The notes beneath the pieces were generated by a model, which worked only from the letters and a program-made list of their open reading frames with translations, made no database searches and was not told the DNA's origin. From Eledone cirrhosa (Eukaryota), in NCBI GenBank assembly GCA_964016885.1, contig OZ024740.1, positions 89,962,001-90,026,000 of the forward strand: DNA of 64,000 nucleotides, written 5' to 3'. The position numbers and the translations under genes are program-made. Positions within the stretch are counted from its first letter, which is position 1, and each line of letters opens with the position of its first letter. Positions 43,333 to 64,000 of this stretch are shown piece after piece.

Positions 43333-44757
43333 TAAAAGCCTATTCCGGATGTTCAAAAGAGCAGCCTCAGGGTGTACACATTTATATTTCATAATGTGCT
43401 AATTGAATAATTAATATTAAAATATGAAACATATAGTTACAACATGTACGGAGAGCTATTAAAAAGTATTTATTAAGAAGAACCGGTAGAGATAGTAGCG
43501 ATCTTTTATAGATATGTGGTATGAATATCTTTATCGTTAGTTTGGTTAACACATGGAAACAGCATTTTTGCTCGAGGCTAATCAAGCCATCATATCAACA
43601 TTCGAAGATGACTTTATCTCTTATAATGAGAAAGATCATAAACTATACATGAATGTACTCATTTAAATGATTTTGCGAAGTTTGATGCGTAGTACATAAT
43701 AGATTTCAAAATATTAATTAAAGCTTTATATTGAATTATGAAAGGTCTTCGAGATTTTCATAAATTTAACAATATATATGGATGTATACGTGAACTTCGG
43801 TAACATAAATTCAGAAACCTATTCGCAATAAAAGTGAATAGTCAATATCGATAACAGGCAATTAAGCACTGCCATCATATTATGATTGATTGCTAAACTA
43901 GAGATTTAAATCATTGATATATATGGCTTTATACATAGTATATCGATGTGATAATTCATTGAAGATATGGAAATAATTAGCGCATTTATTCGTATCAAGA
44001 AGAGAGAGGAACAGTCTATTACTGATACTAAGGCTTGCATTATATATCGTTTCTGATTTAGATATACGTATATTTCCAATCTATTTCACTGCATCGATAT
44101 ACCTGTGTAACCGCTAATTTTTGTCGTAACTGAATAAATCCAAACCCAGAAATATAAACGCACAAACATGCATGTACATGTATACAAATGTACACACATA
44201 TATACATACACATGTATAGATATGCATACAGTGTTTGAGCCAAGGAGGACATTAGGCTTTACCATGATTGTTGGGCGCTACATATGGAGGCCCACATGTA
44301 TACTTCAAAGGAGATAAGCGACTGAATCATATAAAGTATGTAATTTCCCCAGCCTAATGTTGGATAATCATTTGGATATATTTTACACACACATCTACAC
44401 ACACACACCCACATCCATACCACACACCAATATATATATATATATATATATATATACTATAGAGTAAAGCATGTCCAGAGAATTATTTGATAATATATAT
44501 ACATCATCTCTACTCCCAATCAGCATAATTAACCACACAAAAAATCAATTAGACCAGGCTATAAGAATAAAAGGCACCTATGAAGGAACAGTAAATAAAT
44601 ACGCCACACCAGCGTCTTCGCATCCAACCGCTATATAATATTTACCCAACATTTCAACAGCACGTGGAAACTAATTAAATATACGGTCAACCATACATAA
44701 TTAGGTAAAAATTAAAGTTATAAATTCTTATATAGATACCAGGATTTAATCACTAAA

Positions 44758-44832
44758 TCCCAACCCATGTGTTTCGCTCACATTTTGAGATATCTTATTA
44801 AGGATATCCTGAGTTTCGAGCTCATCAGGGGA
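44758..44832 (-). ncRNA. Type I hammerhead ribozyme in a (TA)n-flanked non-coding module (~44460-45135)
   Basis: Minus strand: TCCC-CTGATGA-GCTC..gatatc..gatatc..GAGC-GAAA-CACATGGG-TT-GGGA. Confidence 0.75.
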
Positions 44833-45135
44833 CAAACTCGCTAGGGCAGATTATTTTCCGAAGTGGCCCCCGCCAAACACGAATTCAAAATGGTTGAGAA
44901 CTGTGACGTGGCAGTGGTCAAGTCAGGAAGGGTGTGATTGGTTGCTTACGGCGAGTGGGTTGGTTGCTAGAAAGCGCAGCCCAATATTGCCCAAATTGTA
45001 TCTCAAACTTATGAGAGATTATTGAATATAAATATTTACCCATACACCAATTAAACAAAGTCACAGGTATATATGTGTTTTGGCAACTATTCACGATGTG
45101 GCTCAATGAAGAATTAATAAATTAAACAATCAGAG

Positions 45136-45197
<62 letters not shown>

Positions 45198-55937: not shown

Positions 55938-56016
55938 CGCCGAGGTTAACGGGGTCGATAAAATAAAGTACCAGTAATGCACTGGGTAATTGTGGCTTGT
56001 GCCATAAGTAGAAACA
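55938..56016 (+). mobile_element. 5'-truncated SINE A with ~21-bp target-site duplication
   Basis: attatttattcaaagtaatcc (55917-55937) / attatttattaaaagtaatcc (56017-56037) flank the insert. Confidence 0.85.
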
Positions 56017-56272
56017 ATTATTTATTAAAAGTAATCCAACTTGTTTTACTAACTGGATTAAAGAAATAAACCGTACGCAGTCCCGAATCCTTACTTCATT
56101 ATAATTTAGATTGACCTTCTCATTTTTTCAATAATGTCATCTTTTCAATAATGTGTTTGACGAATCAAGGAAGGGAAAAAAAAGAAAAACAGGTCCTAAA
56201 ATATATTTTCCGTGCTATTTTCAACTTAACCATTTCTCTATATCCACTGTTTTGTATAGAACCTTACTTCCC

Positions 56273-56327
<55 letters not shown>

Positions 56328-56472
56328 GTGAGGTTTTTTTTTGGGTTGTTCTTTTACAAAATGAAAAATAACCGAGGTGTCCTACACGAGTGGAAGTATA
56401 AAGAAAAAGGGATGAAATCGAAAATGCAACTGAAGTCTTATTTTTTTTTAAAATATATATATTTATTTGGTT

Positions 56473-56510
56473 CCTTTACCGGTTTCGCAGTTCTTCTGCT
56501 TTTCAAAAGG
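56473..56510 (-). ncRNA. Hammerhead ribozyme, U3-A8 variant
   Basis: CCTT-TTGAAAA-GCAG aagaa CTGC-GAAA-CCGG-TA-AAGG. Confidence 0.8.
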
Positions 56511-57001
56511 TGAGTTGAGATGGAGGGTCTGTGGTTTTTCTCACATCTGGTTGGTCTCTAAATGTTACTTGTTTTATATGGAAAAAGTGGCTCGAAAGCC
56601 AGGTTTTTCGAGAAGTAATTTGATTGGTTTGTCAATAATTATAATAAATTTCGCGCCAGTTCGCGTTACAATAGTTCTTCAAATAAGAGAGGGGGGGTTG
56701 TCACAGGTTGTTTTTTCATATATGAGTGTTTGAATTTCTTTTTACTTGAAAAAATGAGGCTCACGAAGGCTTTTTTTTGGATGGTTATAAATGAAATTTG
56801 GCTGTTTTCATTACATTTTTGCGCCCTTATTTGGAAAACTAAGTCTTTATAGTGAATGTTATGACAATGGAGAGATAGTGGTCAAGGGAAAAGGGATTGG
56901 AAGAAATGTTCTGGTTCAGTGAATATGGCCAGCTGTCAGAGTTCAGGTGTCAGAGTTCAGATTTTCTATTGAGACTGAAGATATGTGTTTATTTGTGTGC
57001 T

Positions 57002-57032
<31 letters not shown>

Positions 57033-57527
57033 ATGTGTGTATTGGAAGATGATTCTATTAGTAGAGATGGGGGAGGGAGTTGTGTGTGTGTATATATGGG
57101 TGTTATGTGTGTGTGTGCGAGTATGTTAGATGGAGAGAATATATATTTTGTGTGTGTGTATATATATATATGTGTGTAGGAAAGTGGTTCTATTAGTAGA
57201 ACTGGGGAGGGTGTTGTAGGTGTGGGGGTTGTTATGTGTGTGTATGGGTGTTATGTGTGTGGGAGTATGGTTAGCATGTTAAGATGAAGAGAATATCTAT
57301 ATATATATATATATATTGTGTGTGTGTGTATGTGTGTGTGTAGGAACATGATTCCTTTAGTAGGAATATTTTTGAATGAACATATTTTCCTGACTTGTTC
57401 GTGTTTGCTGTTGTATCGCCAGTGCAAACGTATGTTAAGGTTTATTTAGTTCGGGTTTTTATTTTCTAAAGTAGAAGGTGTTATGTGTGTGTGTGTATGT
57501 CATATTGTGGTGTTGACATAATGTATA

Positions 57528-58574
57528 TTAAACCTTATTTAATGTTGGTCTATATTTTTGAATAAACATATTTTCCTTATTTATTCGCATTTGTTCTGTT
57601 GTATTGTTAGCGCAAAGGTAAAATGGGAAGACTTGGAATTTGGGTATCTCATTACTTGCGCAAATGTCTAGATGTGCACTTAGTGGTATCTGTCTCATGG
57701 TTGGATCTCGTAATTGTTGGCGATGAACTGTCATTCTGTTTCTGAGTGTGAGTTTAGTTTGTCCTATATAATCTTCATTGCATCCTTTACATTTAATGGC
57801 ATAAAGTAGATTTTTTGATGAGCAAGTGAAGTGATTTTTTACAGTAAAATTTTGTCCTGATTTAAATGTATACGTGTTGCCTTCAATGAGGTGAGTGCAG
57901 GTTCCACAATTAGAGCGACCACATTTTTTGATACTTGGTTGTGGGTTTGTGGTAGGTAATTTGGCATTGGTGAATAATGTTTTCAGTGATTTTGGTTGTC
58001 TTTTGCTTTTGATTATTTTGTGTGTTTCAAGGGCTTTTTTCATTCTTGGGTTTTGTTTTAGTAGTGGGATGTTATTGTGAATAGTGTTGTAAGCTTCCGC
58101 ATTTCTTGGGTTGTGTGTTGAGATATATGATAGAATATTGGACGTACCTTGAATTTGTTTCTGTTTCTGTAATTCATCAATGCCTATTGCTTTAGCCCTT
58201 TCTATTCCATTATTTATTAGTAATAGTGGGTACTCTCTCTCAAGTAGAATTTCCTTTAATTCTTGAAGTCTTTTATTTCGCGTTTCATAATTGGAGACAA
58301 TTGTGCAAATTCTTCTTGCTAGGTTAAAAGGAATGTTCGTCTTCGTGTTCTTTGGATGGTTGGAGGTGAATAGCAGATATTGTTTGAAATCTGTTGGTTT
58401 GTAGTGTATGTCAGTTTCGATATTTGTATCTTTTTTTGTGATTAAGATGTCCAGAAATGGGAGTTGATCTTGGCTGTATTCCATTGTGAATTGGATGTGG
58501 TTATTGATGCCGTTTATTAAGTTTTTGAAATCCTTCAGTTGGTCGAGGGTGTGGGACCAAAGAATGAGGCAATC
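57528..58574 (-). pseudogene. 5'-truncated PLE polyprotein: RT C-half, Cys-rich linker, GIY-YIG endonuclease
   Basis: IQFTMEYS..LPFLDILI..TDIHYKPTD..YLLFTSNHP..IPFNLARRICTI; CGRSNCGTC; NLLYAIKC..C..YIGQT..RMTVH; ~350 codons without a stop. Confidence 0.92.
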
Positions 58575-58847
58575 AACCAAAAAAAAGCCTTCGTGAGCCT
58601 CATTTTTTTCAAGTAAAAAGAAATTCAAACACTCATATATGAAAAAACAACCTGTGACAACACCCCCTCTCTTATTTGAAGAACTATTGTAACGCGAACT
58701 CGCGCGAAATTTATTATAATTATTGACAAACCAATCAAATTACTTCTCGAAAAACCTGGCTTTCGAGCTACTTTTTCCATATAAAACAAATAACATTTAG
58801 AGACCAACCAGATGTGAGAAAAACCACAGACCCTCCATCTCAACTCA

Positions 58848-58885
58848 CCTTTTGAAAAGCAGAAGAACTGCGAAACCGGTAAAGG
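58848..58885 (+). ncRNA. Hammerhead ribozyme, U3-A8 variant (inverted pLTR copy)
   Basis: Identical 38-nt motif on the plus strand. Confidence 0.8.
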
Positions 58886-58954
58886 AACCAAATAAATATA
58901 TATATTTAAAAAAAAAATAAGACTTCAGTTGCATTTTCGATTTCATCCCTTTTT

Positions 58955-59016
<62 letters not shown>

Positions 59017-59815
59017 GCACAAACTGTCTTCATGATAATAAAGGTGGATGCTGTAAATATTTTTAAAATAAAACAAAATTATGATATATTGTCACATCGT
59101 ACATATGCCTTTCCCTCGTGTGAGTTGAAACCAAATTAAGGAAGAAAACAAGCAAGAAGAAAGTAACATATATTGTCACAAAATGTAAGCCATTGCATTA
59201 AATGGGGTAGGGGAGAAGAGATAAACATGTTCGTCACATGGATACATAAACTTAACGCAATTGACAGAGAGGAAAAGACAACGAACGGAAAGAATAAAAA
59301 ACGAAAAACAAATTTATAGGAGGAAACATTTAAAAAAAATATTTTTACAGATAAAATACAAACGCAGGACACAGATCTCCATTGTCATCGGTCTTCGAGA
59401 TGGTGTTTGGTAATTTCAACCTCTCCCAACAGTAGTAAGATTTGCTTTTTATTTTAATTTTATTCTAAAGTTTAATAGCAAATAAAACCTTTCTGAAATC
59501 ACACCGACGCCAAAACTATATTTAATAGGTAAATCATCGCCTAACATAACATCAAATTTTTCTATGAATCCGGATTGATGTTTAAAGTTATGCCTTTTCA
59601 AAGATGCCAATTCAAATATCAGTTAAATTCTCAACTGACACTTAATTATCACTGTACAACATAATTTGGTAAAAAGACCCACCCAGAAAAATATAGTTTT
59701 CTAATGTGTGAAGTGCAATCTTCTTATAGACATTTTAAAATGTGCTTAATTTTGAATTCGTCATATGTTATGCCACACATGTTTTATTTTTCTCTGCCAC
59801 TCTTACTCCGCAGAG

Positions 59816-59816
<1 letters not shown>

Positions 59817-59897
<81 letters not shown>

Positions 59898-59925
59898 TCT
59901 CTCTCTCTCTATCTCTCTCTTTCTA

Positions 59926-59958
<33 letters not shown>

Positions 59959-59980
59959 CCTCTCTCTACCTCTCTCTCTC
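59817..59980. repeat. (TC)n microsatellite
   Basis: Direct reading. Confidence 0.98.
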
Positions 59981-60599
59981 GAATACACCTTCGAAACATA
60001 AAATGAGAGTGTTAAAGGTAAATGCCTAGATAATTATTTATAGCTATAATTTTCTTTCTCAATAATAGAGATTGGGCAAGTTGAAAAATGACGTCCTTTG
60101 GAGATCTTCCCTTTTATTTAATGAGAAAATCATTGATCATTATGAACATATCAACCAACGTAATGACAGATGGCTTTATAGATAACGTAAAGACATTCCA
60201 ACGCTCGTACACACAAGGTTCCCGCCACTGTAATAGTTCTGAGTACCATGTGCAGGGAGTGAGATCTTGCTTCTTGAATTCCTTCATCGAGGATAAGATG
60301 TCAAATCAGCTGAACATAATGAGTTAGTGGGGCACGTTTTCTGGAACTGGGAAGAAATAATGAGCAAACGAAAACCGTACAGACTGTTAGCTTCTCTCCC
60401 TTCTTTCGCCGAAAAGAAAGAAGTGACATAGTCACTACTTTAAAACCGATAGCGTATGGTATTCAACATTTTTTTTATTAAACTTACGGTATATTGCCAA
60501 ATATACTATACATATATACTACACACACACACACACACACGCACACGCACACACACATACACACACACACATACACACACATACACACACACATACACA

Positions 60600-60646
<47 letters not shown>

Positions 60647-60674
60647 ACACACACACACACACATATGTATATAT

Positions 60675-61532
60675 CAAGAAGGACCCGGGTAAATATCACA
60701 ATCATATCTCATTTTGTTTGACCCGTTTTAGCTTCTTCGCTTTTTTGGCTATGGTGGTTAATGGCTTCTTAACCATCCTCTCAGCGTGTATGACCTTTTT
60801 AACTTATGTTTATAGCTCTGGTATCTTCTTCAGTTCCATGGAGCGCTTGCCAGCACAATATGGAAGTTGCCTTTTGCTAATTTCTACCCGCCGAAATGCG
60901 ATTCACGCTAAATTATATTTGTATTAATCTCCCAAGTCAAGCGATTAACCAGTTAATTTTATTTGGCTTTTTAGATATTATATTGACTGATTGATCGCTT
61001 AAGTTTATTTTAAAACGACTCGGTAGAGAGCTTAATTCGTTTTGTGCGGTTTTTGCAAATGTTTGCAATAACTACACATGCTGAATTCACTGGCCAAAAT
61101 AGGGGTTTTCTCCCCTTAGATTCTCGCATGTGCTTTCATAACCTGCAAGAGTCTGCCGACAGAAGAATAAAAATCCGTTGAGAAAGCGATGCCCTGTACG
61201 GTCTCTATACCAAAAGCTTATTTTTATAAGCAGACAGTATTATTGATTTAGGCGTTGCAGAAACCCACTTTCGGAGTATTCCATCTTCCAAGAAGAGTCC
61301 GGTAAATATCACAATCATATCTCATTTTGTTTGACCCGTTTTAGCTTGTTCGCTTTTTTGGCTATGGTGGTTAGTGGCTTCTTAACCATCGTCTCAGCGT
61401 GTATGACCTATTTAACCTATGTTTATAGCTCTGGTATCTTCTTCAGTTCCATGGAGCGCTTGTCAGCACAATATGGAAGTTGCGTTTCGCTAATTTCTAC
61501 CCGCCGAAATGCGATTCTCGCTAAATTATATT

Positions 61533-61537
<5 letters not shown>
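60675..61537. repeat. ~250-bp direct repeat, period 613 bp, flanked by microsatellites (partial-tandem, pLTR-like)
   Basis: 60675-60925 resembles 61289-61537 (duplicate ORFs in the track). Confidence 0.9.
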
Positions 61538-61587
<50 letters not shown>

Positions 61588-61829
61588 ATAAATTAACGGA
61601 GCCATAGGCCATCGCCATTCTCTGTATATAATGTGCTCAAAGGAGAAGAAATCCTGAACTCTTTAAAATACAATATGTTGAAATGGTAACACACCAGAGA
61701 GAGATATACAGTGCGCTATCAATAAAGCAGGGAAAAAACCACCAGTGTATGGAATCTATAACCTATGAAAGGCAGACGATAATTAAAAATATAAATTAAA
61801 GCGTATATAAATACCTCTATAACTATATA

Positions 61830-61911
61830 AGAGACGTAAAAATCCAAAGAGAACTGTTTCGACAGTAATTTGTTGACAGAAATGGAATAACCCGGGTTCC
61901 TCAGCGTGTGT
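61830..61911 (-). ncRNA. Hammerhead ribozyme, array unit 1
   Basis: ACACACG-CTGAGGA..C-GAAA-CAGTT..ATTTT-TA-CGTCTCT; stems partly decayed. Confidence 0.6.
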
Positions 61912-62364
61912 AAGGCTATACATTTCAGACAACACTAAGATAATTTTAAAAGTGACTGTCCAGCTATACATGGGAGAGAGAAGTGACAGCGTGTTTAAGG
62001 GCAGTGAACCAGTGGCCGCTGAGGGACGAGCTGCTAGAAAGGGCAGCCCAAAACCACTCAGAGAAGTGTGCTCAACCAAATAGAGAGATAGGGAAGACTG
62101 TTATAAGGAGCGAAATATCACGCTAAATTAACGGAGGCATATGCCCTCGTCGTTCCCTGTAAATAATGTGCTCAAAGGAGAATAAATCCTGAGCTCTTTA
62201 AAATCCAATATGTTGAAAAGGTAACACACCAGAGATAGATATACAGTGCGCTATCAATAAAACAGGGCAAAAACCACCAGTATATGGAATCTATAACCTA
62301 TGAACGGCAGACGATAATTAAAGATATAAATTAAAGCGTAAATAAATACCTCTATAACTATATA

Positions 62365-62446
62365 ACACACGTACAAATCCAAAGAGATCTGATTCGACAG
62401 GAATTTGTTGACAGAAATGGAATAACCCGGGTTCCTCAGCGTGTGT
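62365..62446 (-). ncRNA. Hammerhead ribozyme, array unit 2
   Basis: ACACACG-CTGAGGA..C-GAAT-CAGAT ctctttgg ATTTG-TA-CGTGTGT; perfect stem I, GAAA mutated to GAAT. Confidence 0.65.
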
Positions 62447-62907
62447 AAGGCTATACCTTTCAGACAACACTAAGAGAATTTTAAAATTGACTGTCCAGCT
62501 ACACGTGGGACAGAGAAGTCACAGCGTGTTTAAGGGCAGTGAACCAGTGGCCTCTGAGGGACGAGCTGCTAGAAAGGGCAGCCCAAACCACTCAGAGAAG
62601 TGTGCTCAACCAAATAGAGAGATAGGGAAGACTGTTATAAGGAGCGAAATATCACGCTAAATTAACGGAGCCATAGGCCTTCGTCATTCCCTGTAAATAA
62701 TGTGCTCAAAGGAGAATAAATCCTGAGCTCTTTAAAATACAATATGTTTAAAAGGTAACACACCAGAGATAGATATACAGTGCGCTATCAATAAAACAGG
62801 GAAAAAACCACCAGTGTATGTAATCTATAACCTATGAAAGGCAGACTATAGACACGATTATTAAAAATATAAAGTAAAACCTAAATAAATACGTCTATAA
62901 CTATATA

Positions 62908-62989
62908 ACACACGTACACATCCAAATAGATCTTTTTCTCCAGTGATGTGTTGATAGAAATGGAATAACCACGGTTCCTCAGCGTGTGT
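62908..62989 (-). ncRNA. Hammerhead ribozyme, array unit 3
   Basis: ACACACG-CTGAGGA-aCCGTGGT..ATCACTGGa-GAAA-AAGAT..ATGTG-TA-CGTGTGT. Confidence 0.6.
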
Positions 62990-63180
62990 AAGGCTATAGA
63001 TTTCAGACAACACTAAGAGAATTTTAAAAGTGACTGTCCAACTACACGTGGGAGAGAGAAGTCACAACGTGTTTAAGGGCAGTGAACCAGTGGCCTCCGA
63101 GGGACGAGCTGCTAGAAAGGGCAGCCCAAAACCACTCAGATAATTGTGCTCAACCAAATAGAGAGATAGGAAAGACTGTT

Positions 63181-64000
63181 AGGTCTGGACCTAACCAGAC
63201 ACCGAGCAATTTCACCGGTCCTTTCGTCCAGCGTCCAACAACTATGTCGGAAGGTATGGGTTTTCCTCTCCATGTGCCGAGTTGCAAACCGACAGACTTG
63301 TTTGGGTTTAGTATTGCTCCTGTCAAAGTTTCGTATTCCTGTAAATTGTTGCCGATTACCCTGATTTCCGAGGTTTTCGACACCATTACGGTTATGTCGT
63401 CGGCATAGGTTGACGCTGCTTTCCGCAGTCCAAATTCGATCGGGATGCCCTGCAACAGCTCCAATTTCCGCAGTAACAGCTTGAGATTCAGTACAGAATG
63501 GAGGAGAGAGGGCATTCCTGGCGGATAGAACGCATGATTTGGAATGGCTCTGAAAGGTAGCCATTCACCTTGACTGCCGGGTAGATGCTGGTGTGCATGG
63601 CAGTGATCCAGCTTCTGAAGACGGGACTGAAGCCGGCCGCATTGAGAACTGCTTCCAAATATTGATGGTCGACCCTATCAAATGCCTTAGACTGATCTAA
63701 ATTGATCAGTGCCCCACCAAAGCCAGGTTTACACGCCCTCTATTATCACAAGCTGCTACATAGTCCCAACGTGCGTCTAAGATGCCATTCCATTCCCCCG
63801 CTAACACTAAGGAGCGAGACGTTCCCAGGAATGGCTCCAAATGCTTCAAGAACTCTGGTCGAGAGTTCCCAGTCGGGGCATATAGGGCCACCAGTCTGAA
63901 AGCTCCACCTTCACTACCATTCACGTCCATGACCACCAGGCTGACCTCCGGGTCCAGGAGAATCGTCTGTATTTTGAGATCGAAGTTTTTTTCGAAACAG
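63181..64000 (-). mobile_element. Tx1/L1-clade LINE ORF2 fragment with internal deletion (APE joined to RT)
   Basis: APE: LDPEVSLVVMDV..FRLVALYAP..VLAGEWN.ILD. RT: GALINLDQSKAFDRVDH..IRQECPLSP..YADDITV..LNPNKS..KLLGVWLGP. Confidence 0.92.

Follow-up and report, generated by a model that had tools for sequence, protein, structure and literature searches.

The 64,000-nt stretch of the Eledone cirrhosa genome analyzed here (assembly GCA_964016885.1, contig OZ024740.1, positions 89,962,001 to 90,026,000; hereafter, the window) carries, close to its right-hand end, three head-to-tail units on the minus strand (61583-63181), which are 530-534 bp long and 90-94% identical to one another. An original prediction, made from the sequence alone, described this array as a trimer of non-coding units of about 535 bp with one hammerhead ribozyme each, and these elements of it were borne out: all three units are present, their family consensus holds no stop-to-stop open reading frame (ORF) longer than 82 codons, and every unit contains one hammerhead-like motif, each with a different core lesion. 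We consider it probable that the array consists of degraded copies of a 543-nt hammerhead repeat that is non-coding and dispersed in the genome, likely a non-autonomous Penelope-like element (PLE) of the type termed non-long-terminal-repeat (non-LTR) retrozyme, that it inserted at this locus as about two units, and that the third was gained by unequal crossover.

The three hammerhead motifs are damaged in distinct ways. Unit 1 carries G16.2>U together with two stem I mismatches, unit 2 carries A15.1>U, and unit 3 carries both C11.1>A and C15.2>A; none of the three copies in the window has an intact core. The family has two fixed 3' ends, a long one at consensus base 543 and a short one at base 458, the latter position lying at 61668, 62203, and 62737 in units 1, 2, and 3, respectively. 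The trimer was also predicted to be docked in (TA)n. This holds for its 3' end, which runs into (TA)28, but not for its 5' end, where base 14 of unit 3 is joined at 63182, through a 2-nt (TA) microhomology, to a truncated reverse transcriptase (RT) fragment of a long interspersed nuclear element (LINE), which we take from its motifs to be of the Tx1 type. We considered the trimer as a 3' untranslated region of this LINE and rejected the idea: the LINE is cut inside its RT at the junction, its other copies continue differently past the junction base (contigs of runs X1-X3), and the LINE family meets other units in the opposite orientation (L142, L198). The features of the locus are listed in Table 1.

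Table 1 Features of the trimer and its flanks, in window coordinates
Feature	Position	Strand	Remarks
Unit 1 (3'-most), full length, ending at the long 3' end (consensus base 543)	61583..62116	-	3.9% from family consensus
Unit 2, full length, chimeric: resembles unit 1 in its 5' part and unit 3 in its 3' part	62118..62650	-	4.1% from consensus
Unit 3 (5'-most), truncated at consensus base 14	62652..63181	-	5.1% from consensus
Hammerhead motif of unit 1, type I, broken (16.2, stem I, stem II)	61830..61911	-	site after 61837
Hammerhead motif of unit 2, type I, broken (GAAA>GAAU, stem II)	62365..62446	-	site after 62372
Hammerhead motif of unit 3, type I, broken (11.1, 15.2)	62908..62989	-	site after 62915
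Interval of the putative crossover in unit 2 (between consensus bases 348 and 425)	62237..62312	-	window coordinates derived
85-nt tail between the two fixed 3' ends of the family	61583..61667	-	
(TA)28 target microsatellite, common to the 3' end of the trimer and that of a second non-coding family opposite	61527..61583		
Degraded L1/Tx1-type LINE fragment, RT cut at the last motif; 5' junction partner, outside the family	63182..64000	-	RVT_1 E 5.7e-05, below curated cut-off

The unit is one of many non-coding copies scattered through the 3.0-Gb genome; the consensus of this family, built from 43 units at 28 loci, is 543 nt long with a guanine-cytosine (GC) content of 0.40. Copies in the consensus set diverge from it by 1.0-5.2%, and the window units by 3.9-5.1%. 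A first look yielded 2,688 candidates, of which the best 40 were scored. Exact matches numbered 546 for a 20-mer at the 5' end, far fewer than the 2,184 for a 22-mer at the 3' end (reversed-pattern controls, 0), indicating a gradient of 5' truncation. In a hand count of the first 100 of 1,928 matches, the long 3' end was followed by a (TA)-type repeat 64 times and by the next unit 36 times, and by nothing else; similarly, the unit's own end preceded its start in 98 of the first 100 of 514 matches. Since the ends meet almost exclusively (TA)-type repeats or the unit itself, with no long ORF, the unit is closed on itself and non-coding. Runs X1-X3 (contigs from one sample) contained many unit variants as well as the head-to-tail joint, with depth that gives no copy number. 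Duplicate loci of one insertion were dropped from all counts. Locus L214 was included in the insertion-anatomy count of 60 loci and left out of the ribozyme, marker, and complementary DNA (cDNA) run counts. Loci L120, L237, and L238, where a single unit insertion was amplified as a passenger within a larger composite repeat (judging by a common upstream flank and a common internal deletion of ribozyme stem I), were left out of the cDNA-run count.

At the level of the family, the ribozyme core is mostly intact. The consensus matches a type I hammerhead descriptor that none of 2,000 dinucleotide shuffles matched, with a 7-bp stem I, CUGA(G/U)GA, GAAA, a 6-bp stem III with an 8-nt loop, and a GUA site. 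Among units from the fetched loci, the core (CUGANGA / GAAA / NUH) is intact in 113/153, and 75/153 keep the core together with at least 6/7 of stem I and three stem II pairs. The claim that a consensus of the three window copies is already a complete hammerhead did not survive: units 1 and 2 share stem II lesions (positions 223 and 255), so the majority inherits a broken stem II, and only the genome-wide consensus restores it, as 3-4 bp atop an A·C mismatch at 10.1-11.1. Nor did the Rfam hammerhead models yield a match at E<=10 in the window interval 56000-64000; in six other loci, no hammerhead appeared among 150 of 157 rows, and one of these six was a PLE locus whose hammerheads were missed too. 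Substitutions are rarer in the core than overall (2.1% vs 4.7%), with the free position N7 as the polymorphic core position, which suggests that the ribozyme was under past selection in the source elements. The whole unit folds with z = -4.2, and in a circular monomer, stem I has a pairing probability of about 0.25. The ribozyme of the family is predicted to be functional and likely slow or protein-assisted; activity is plausible and probably low.

The anatomy of the insertions points to the machinery that moved the family. Where loci were picked by motif and not by score, the 3' ends of copies fall at consensus base 543 or 458-462, in (TA)n. Insertions are mostly dispersed and 0.1-1.5 units long, and some form partial tandems. 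Across 60 newly fetched loci, (TA)n was found at 72/75 canonical 3' ends, and 38 loci held head-to-head inversions. Inversion junctions in the family are often near-mirror. All 24 inversions with two canonical ends paired one long with one short end (24/24; binomial p ~1e-7 vs independent use), while the 14 further inverted loci had at least one non-canonical end. Among 77 earlier loci, scored by a cruder leftmost/rightmost rule, 32 were long/short, two were long/long, and 14 had another end.

These marks closely resemble those of PLEs. As far as the available sections of the relevant papers describe them, PLE insertions are partial tandems in which one copy is inverted and 5'-truncated and one end carries a tail of 30-40 nt, with (TA)n as a preferred target of Naiad (PMC8557442), and their inversion junctions are palindromic, with 5' joining by microhomology (Arkhipova 2013, PMC3846280). 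In vitro, the protein of an anole PLE, a predicted dimer, cleaves and extends both strands of AT-rich DNA and initiates reverse transcription at two sites inside the RNA, one at either boundary of the tail, without needing ribozyme cleavage (Frangieh 2024, PMC11167929). Our family shares with these elements (PMC3846280; PMC8557442; PMC11167929) the 5' truncation, partial tandems, head-to-head inversions, near-palindromic junctions, a tail at one end only, AT-rich or (TA)n targets, a hammerhead upstream of the 3' ends, and read-through of the ribozyme; unlike them, it has no ORF. A coding PLE of the same genome (L081) is likewise inverted, its two arms ending about 55 nt apart (short/long) in (TA)n, and has a minimal hammerhead about 375 nt after the stop codon, with U·U at the base of stem II. 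Because of these insertion marks, the in vitro biochemistry, and the wealth of coding PLEs, one of them with the same kind of ends, the family was very likely moved by PLE machinery, presumably through target-primed reverse transcription. This agrees with the proposal of a non-autonomous, hammerhead-bearing retroelement family that uses PLE machinery. A hairpin in the tail was unsupported (fold z = -0.9).

We next consider the RNA from which the copies were made. Canonical 3' ends define 189 cDNA runs at 133 loci, and 77 of these extend across the unit junction. The ribozyme site was passed 139 times, and eight runs stop within 10 nt of it; a strong stop at this site was rejected, as the stops (7/85, and 8 against 139 passes) do not rise above neighboring windows. 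Since the ribozyme site is read through and the junction crossed, a cleaved linear monomer was not the template; an uncleaved multimer and a circle both fit.

The variants of the three window units indicate how the trimer arose. Relative to the consensus, units 1 and 2 alone share variants at 24, 223, 224, and 255 and a 9-nt deletion at 340, whereas units 2 and 3 alone share those at 425, 478, 511, and 538. Units 1 and 3 share none between them, and one variant, at base 36, is common to all three units. By our own calculation, this ordering of 5+4 markers has a chance of 1/126. It is the pattern produced when a dimer X-Y undergoes unequal crossover to give X, Y5'-X3', Y. Four of the five markers of units 1 and 2 occur in 0-1 of about 138 other loci, and the junction of the 9-nt deletion has three occurrences in the genome: two in this array and one of independent origin. 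No source array with this deletion is therefore present in the assembly, which favors a DNA event in place over a jump of the RT. Three other arrays (L013, L139, L180) show the same marker polarity with breakpoints elsewhere in the unit, the intervals in the four arrays being 348-425, 157-222, 263-496, and 418-509; the ribozyme site (280/281) is not common to them. L026 is a complex mosaic. Unequal crossover has been named as the route of array growth in the available text of Li et al. (bioRxiv 10.64898/2026.07.22.740005).

Taken together, these observations underlie our reading of the locus as a PLE-mobilized hammerhead repeat enlarged by crossover, and several points weigh against it. The tail (bases 459-543) measures 85 nt, compared with 30-40 nt described for PLEs, and both 3' ends have AT microhomology of 3-6 nt with the target, in contrast to the anole PLE, whose start sites are non-homologous to the cut DNA. 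The usual G-C pair at 10.1-11.1 is absent from the hammerhead, with A·C in 120/153 units and A-U in 28/153, and when the motif is folded in isolation, the ribozyme fold is not the one of lowest energy (-13.0 constrained vs -21.2 kcal/mol free); other PLE hammerheads of this genome are also mismatched at 10.1-11.1 (U·U). No pseudo-LTR (pLTR) or end shared with an autonomous PLE was detected by blastn and nhmmer in 40 PLE loci, out of 150 listed and 10,597 candidates. Loci were picked by motif or best score, mostly on one chromosome, such that the rates are not unbiased. As for the crossover, some of the shared markers (224 and 511) are polymorphisms found widely in the family. Of the five arrays with more than two units, L016 is star-like, which is what copying from a single template, whether multimer or circle, would produce. 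The same chimera would also result if the RT jumped back by one period while copying a dimer RNA, and only the missing source favors the DNA route.

That last alternative, in which the linear transcript of a diverged dimer (with the RT jumping back by one period) or a heterogeneous source array gave rise to the trimer in a single retrotransposition, is unlikely, although it would likewise yield a chimeric middle unit. Among the five long arrays, four show the pattern, a high share if it arose by later DNA events, and several of the sorted markers in L180 are family-wide. The window markers, in contrast, are private to the locus, and the deletion junction lacks a matching source.

The original prediction explained the trimer differently, as about three turns of rolling reverse transcription. 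In such a scenario, a circular RNA of about 540 nt, produced by the hammerheads, would have been reverse-transcribed three times around into the site. The junction-crossing runs and the absence of a stop at the ribozyme site, which speak against a cleaved linear monomer, agree with a circle, as do the base-36 variant present in all three units and in just 1 of about 138 other loci, the star-like L016, and the stable fold of the whole unit; circles have moreover been reported for coral, mussel, and axolotl retrozymes (PMC7229834, in its available sections). However, one template copied thrice would pass the same variants to every unit, and neither the chimeric middle unit nor pairwise, position-sorted variants private to the locus can come from repeated copying of one molecule. 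The breakpoints of the four arrays do not share the ribozyme site, only 5/189 cDNA runs have three or more segments, and stop rates on the second pass are not lower than on the first (0.52 vs 0.26 at bases 351-440, in small, biased samples). We thus deem three turns of a circle improbable at this locus, and a circle as the template of the original dimer rather doubtful.

A third possibility is that the unit is the pLTR of a coding PLE outside our sample, which we find very improbable. GIY-YIG PLEs are abundant in the genome (10,597 candidates, the best 150 scored), and coding PLEs with RT and GIY-YIG ORFs of 844-1096 codons co-exist with the family. All the insertion marks are of the PLE type, and the comparison covered 40 PLE loci only, which gave just a short unit insertion in TA and weak matches to the leader motif. 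Two of these matches were rejected as partners: a 70% match at L051 is a unit fragment of 65 nt lying in TA and lengthened by microsatellite sequence, and a leader match at L077 belongs to a sister non-coding family, with (TA)n between it and the ORF. An RT and GIY-YIG ORF between pLTRs was not found at the family copies among the fetched loci and listed end matches. In 100+100 listed matches, neither end of the unit had a recurrent third neighbor, coding or otherwise, and the unit is hence not always the pLTR of a coding PLE. At L130 (1776-3017, minus strand), the 5' end of a unit is joined in sense to a PLE ORF by a short microhomology, and the rest of the PLE is absent from the other side within 1.1 kb. 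This fusion could be read in favor of a pLTR, but it lies inside the endonuclease-coding part and at unit base 357, which marks it as a junction rather than a pLTR. It can be explained by template switching of a shared RT, in which case the partner would be named, or by a deletion at the target. Within the window, a 403-codon PLE fragment at 57528-58739 (minus strand) comprises the end of the RT, a CxxxxCxxC linker, and a GIY-YIG domain; it shares about 90% identity with a coding family at other sites in the genome and is Neptune-like by its linker motif, as this motif is described in the available part of PMC8557442.

Finally, that the third unit is an assembly artefact joining two haplotypes of a dimer is hardly credible: a mis-join would also produce a chimeric middle unit, and no contig of runs X1-X3 spans the array, but unit 2 is separated from its donors by 17 events over the 5' 340 nt and by 10 over the 3' 200 nt, and such a divergence (about 5%) is too high between alleles.

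Our preferred reading, of PLE-driven insertion followed by crossover, can be cast as a series of steps, most of them putative. A source locus of more than one unit would be transcribed into head-to-tail RNA. A PLE protein with RT and GIY-YIG activities would nick (TA)n and start the cDNA internally at base 543 or 458, a step suggested by the genomic ends and by the PLE biochemistry in the available part of PMC11167929. As the DNA shows, the cDNA then crosses the unit junction and the ribozyme site and stops at variable positions, giving 5'-truncated partial tandems, and priming at both target ends gives head-to-head inversions with one long and one short end. At the window locus, the 5' end would have been joined to the LINE fragment by microhomology. 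After about nine differences had arisen between two units, a misaligned exchange, to which the shared variants point, may have created the chimeric middle unit. All three ribozymes lost core bases, and the copy is predicted to be inactive. The locus is thus a dead copy, whose three units are not three turns of a circle.

Other non-coding families were noted alongside this one. Facing the trimer tail-to-tail across the TA tract, at 60675-61537 (plus strand), lie 1.4 copies of a 614-bp unit with 4,088 first-look candidates, which forms partial tandems and has a fixed 3' end in (TA)n. Its start resembles those of sister families, and the sense strand of its consensus has no hammerhead core, making it a ribozyme-less relative. 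A copy of a sister family at approximately 44462-45137 (minus strand) has the same leader motif, (TA)n on both flanks, and a hammerhead with the canonical G10.1-C11.1 pair. Another sister hammerhead family forms long arrays with a period of about 660-674 bp at C1:92.99-93.02 Mb (L100-L116; about 28 kb) and C1:375.41 Mb; its leader 19-mer has 470 exact matches, its two 3' ends lie about 100 nt apart, and its stem III is palindromic. Two tandem hammerheads 459 nt apart, found 1.7 kb behind a PLE ORF (L068:6195 and 6654), probably belong to another non-coding family.

Non-LTR retrozymes are tandem hammerhead repeats proposed to be non-autonomous derivatives of PLEs, with PLEs as their likely motor (PMC7229834; bioRxiv 10.64898/2026.07.22.740005; statements drawn from the available sections). 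By its sequence and insertion anatomy, our family fits the definition of a retrozyme. Like the animal elements (Cervera & de la Pena 2020, PMC7229834; Li, Clavereau & Pollet 2026), it consists of non-coding tandems with one type I hammerhead per unit, has a GC content of 40% (<45%), ranges from monomers to multimers, and co-exists with autonomous PLEs. Its 543-nt unit exceeds the approximately 170-400 nt of tested invertebrate retrozymes and falls within the 51-972 range of Li et al., and its hammerhead differs in having a 6-bp stem III and A·C at 10.1-11.1. Dispersed insertions of 0.1-1.5 units in (TA)n, two fixed 3' ends, and inversions are not reported in the available passages of the retrozyme papers. 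With all three copies lesioned, the window locus is not "active" by the definition of Li et al. (two consecutive complete hammerheads).

Other comparisons are closer to the PLEs themselves. The non-autonomous Chlamys PLEs, such as MRC1 (PMC8557442, available part), are also non-coding, pLTR-forming, and multicopy head-to-tail, with a bias toward microsatellites; they lack canonical hammerheads, however, and share 3'-end sequence with an autonomous family, a likeness not seen here in the 40 PLE loci. The PLE hammerhead variants of Cervera & de la Pena (2014, PMC4209133), as its available text presents them, share the type I topology, variable stems, and irregular stem II base. They differ in that one nucleotide is added after A9, the G10.1-C11.1 pair is conserved, and stem III is minimal and palindromic, implying a dimeric fold, whereas our family is without G10.1 and has a full stem III. 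We found no description of this family in the literature on octopus and cephalopod hammerheads, retrozymes, and PLEs, although Repbase, Dfam, subscription papers, or supplements may hold one; the available text of the 2026 Octopus vulgaris repeat annotation contains neither "ribozyme" nor "retrozyme" (0 occurrences; PMC13282606).

A broader reading, which we regard as evenly balanced, is that this is an animal retrozyme moved by PLE-type target-primed reverse transcription from an uncleaved or circular head-to-tail RNA, in which a dimer of PLE RT would prime two (TA)n ends at two fixed RNA sites 85 nt apart, one per end (56/58 inversions with two canonical ends). The family would then head a superfamily of 540-700-nt non-coding units with one leader motif, with and without a ribozyme, none of which we found described in this lineage. 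How animal retrozymes move is still a matter of hypothesis, namely that a PLE RT copies circular RNA. The family bears the PLE insertion signature on thousands of copies, and the link that this makes between a retrozyme and PLE biochemistry is one of mechanism, not of related sequence. The number of tandem copies in a genome is, in turn, no evidence of rolling-circle copying, as four of the five long arrays here look recombinational. The value lies in the family rather than in the trimer: by sequence and anatomy it is a retrozyme, its PLE insertion signature is clean, each end strictly uses one start site, and it offers a short natural RNA substrate, with two well-separated start sites, for the existing in vitro PLE assay.

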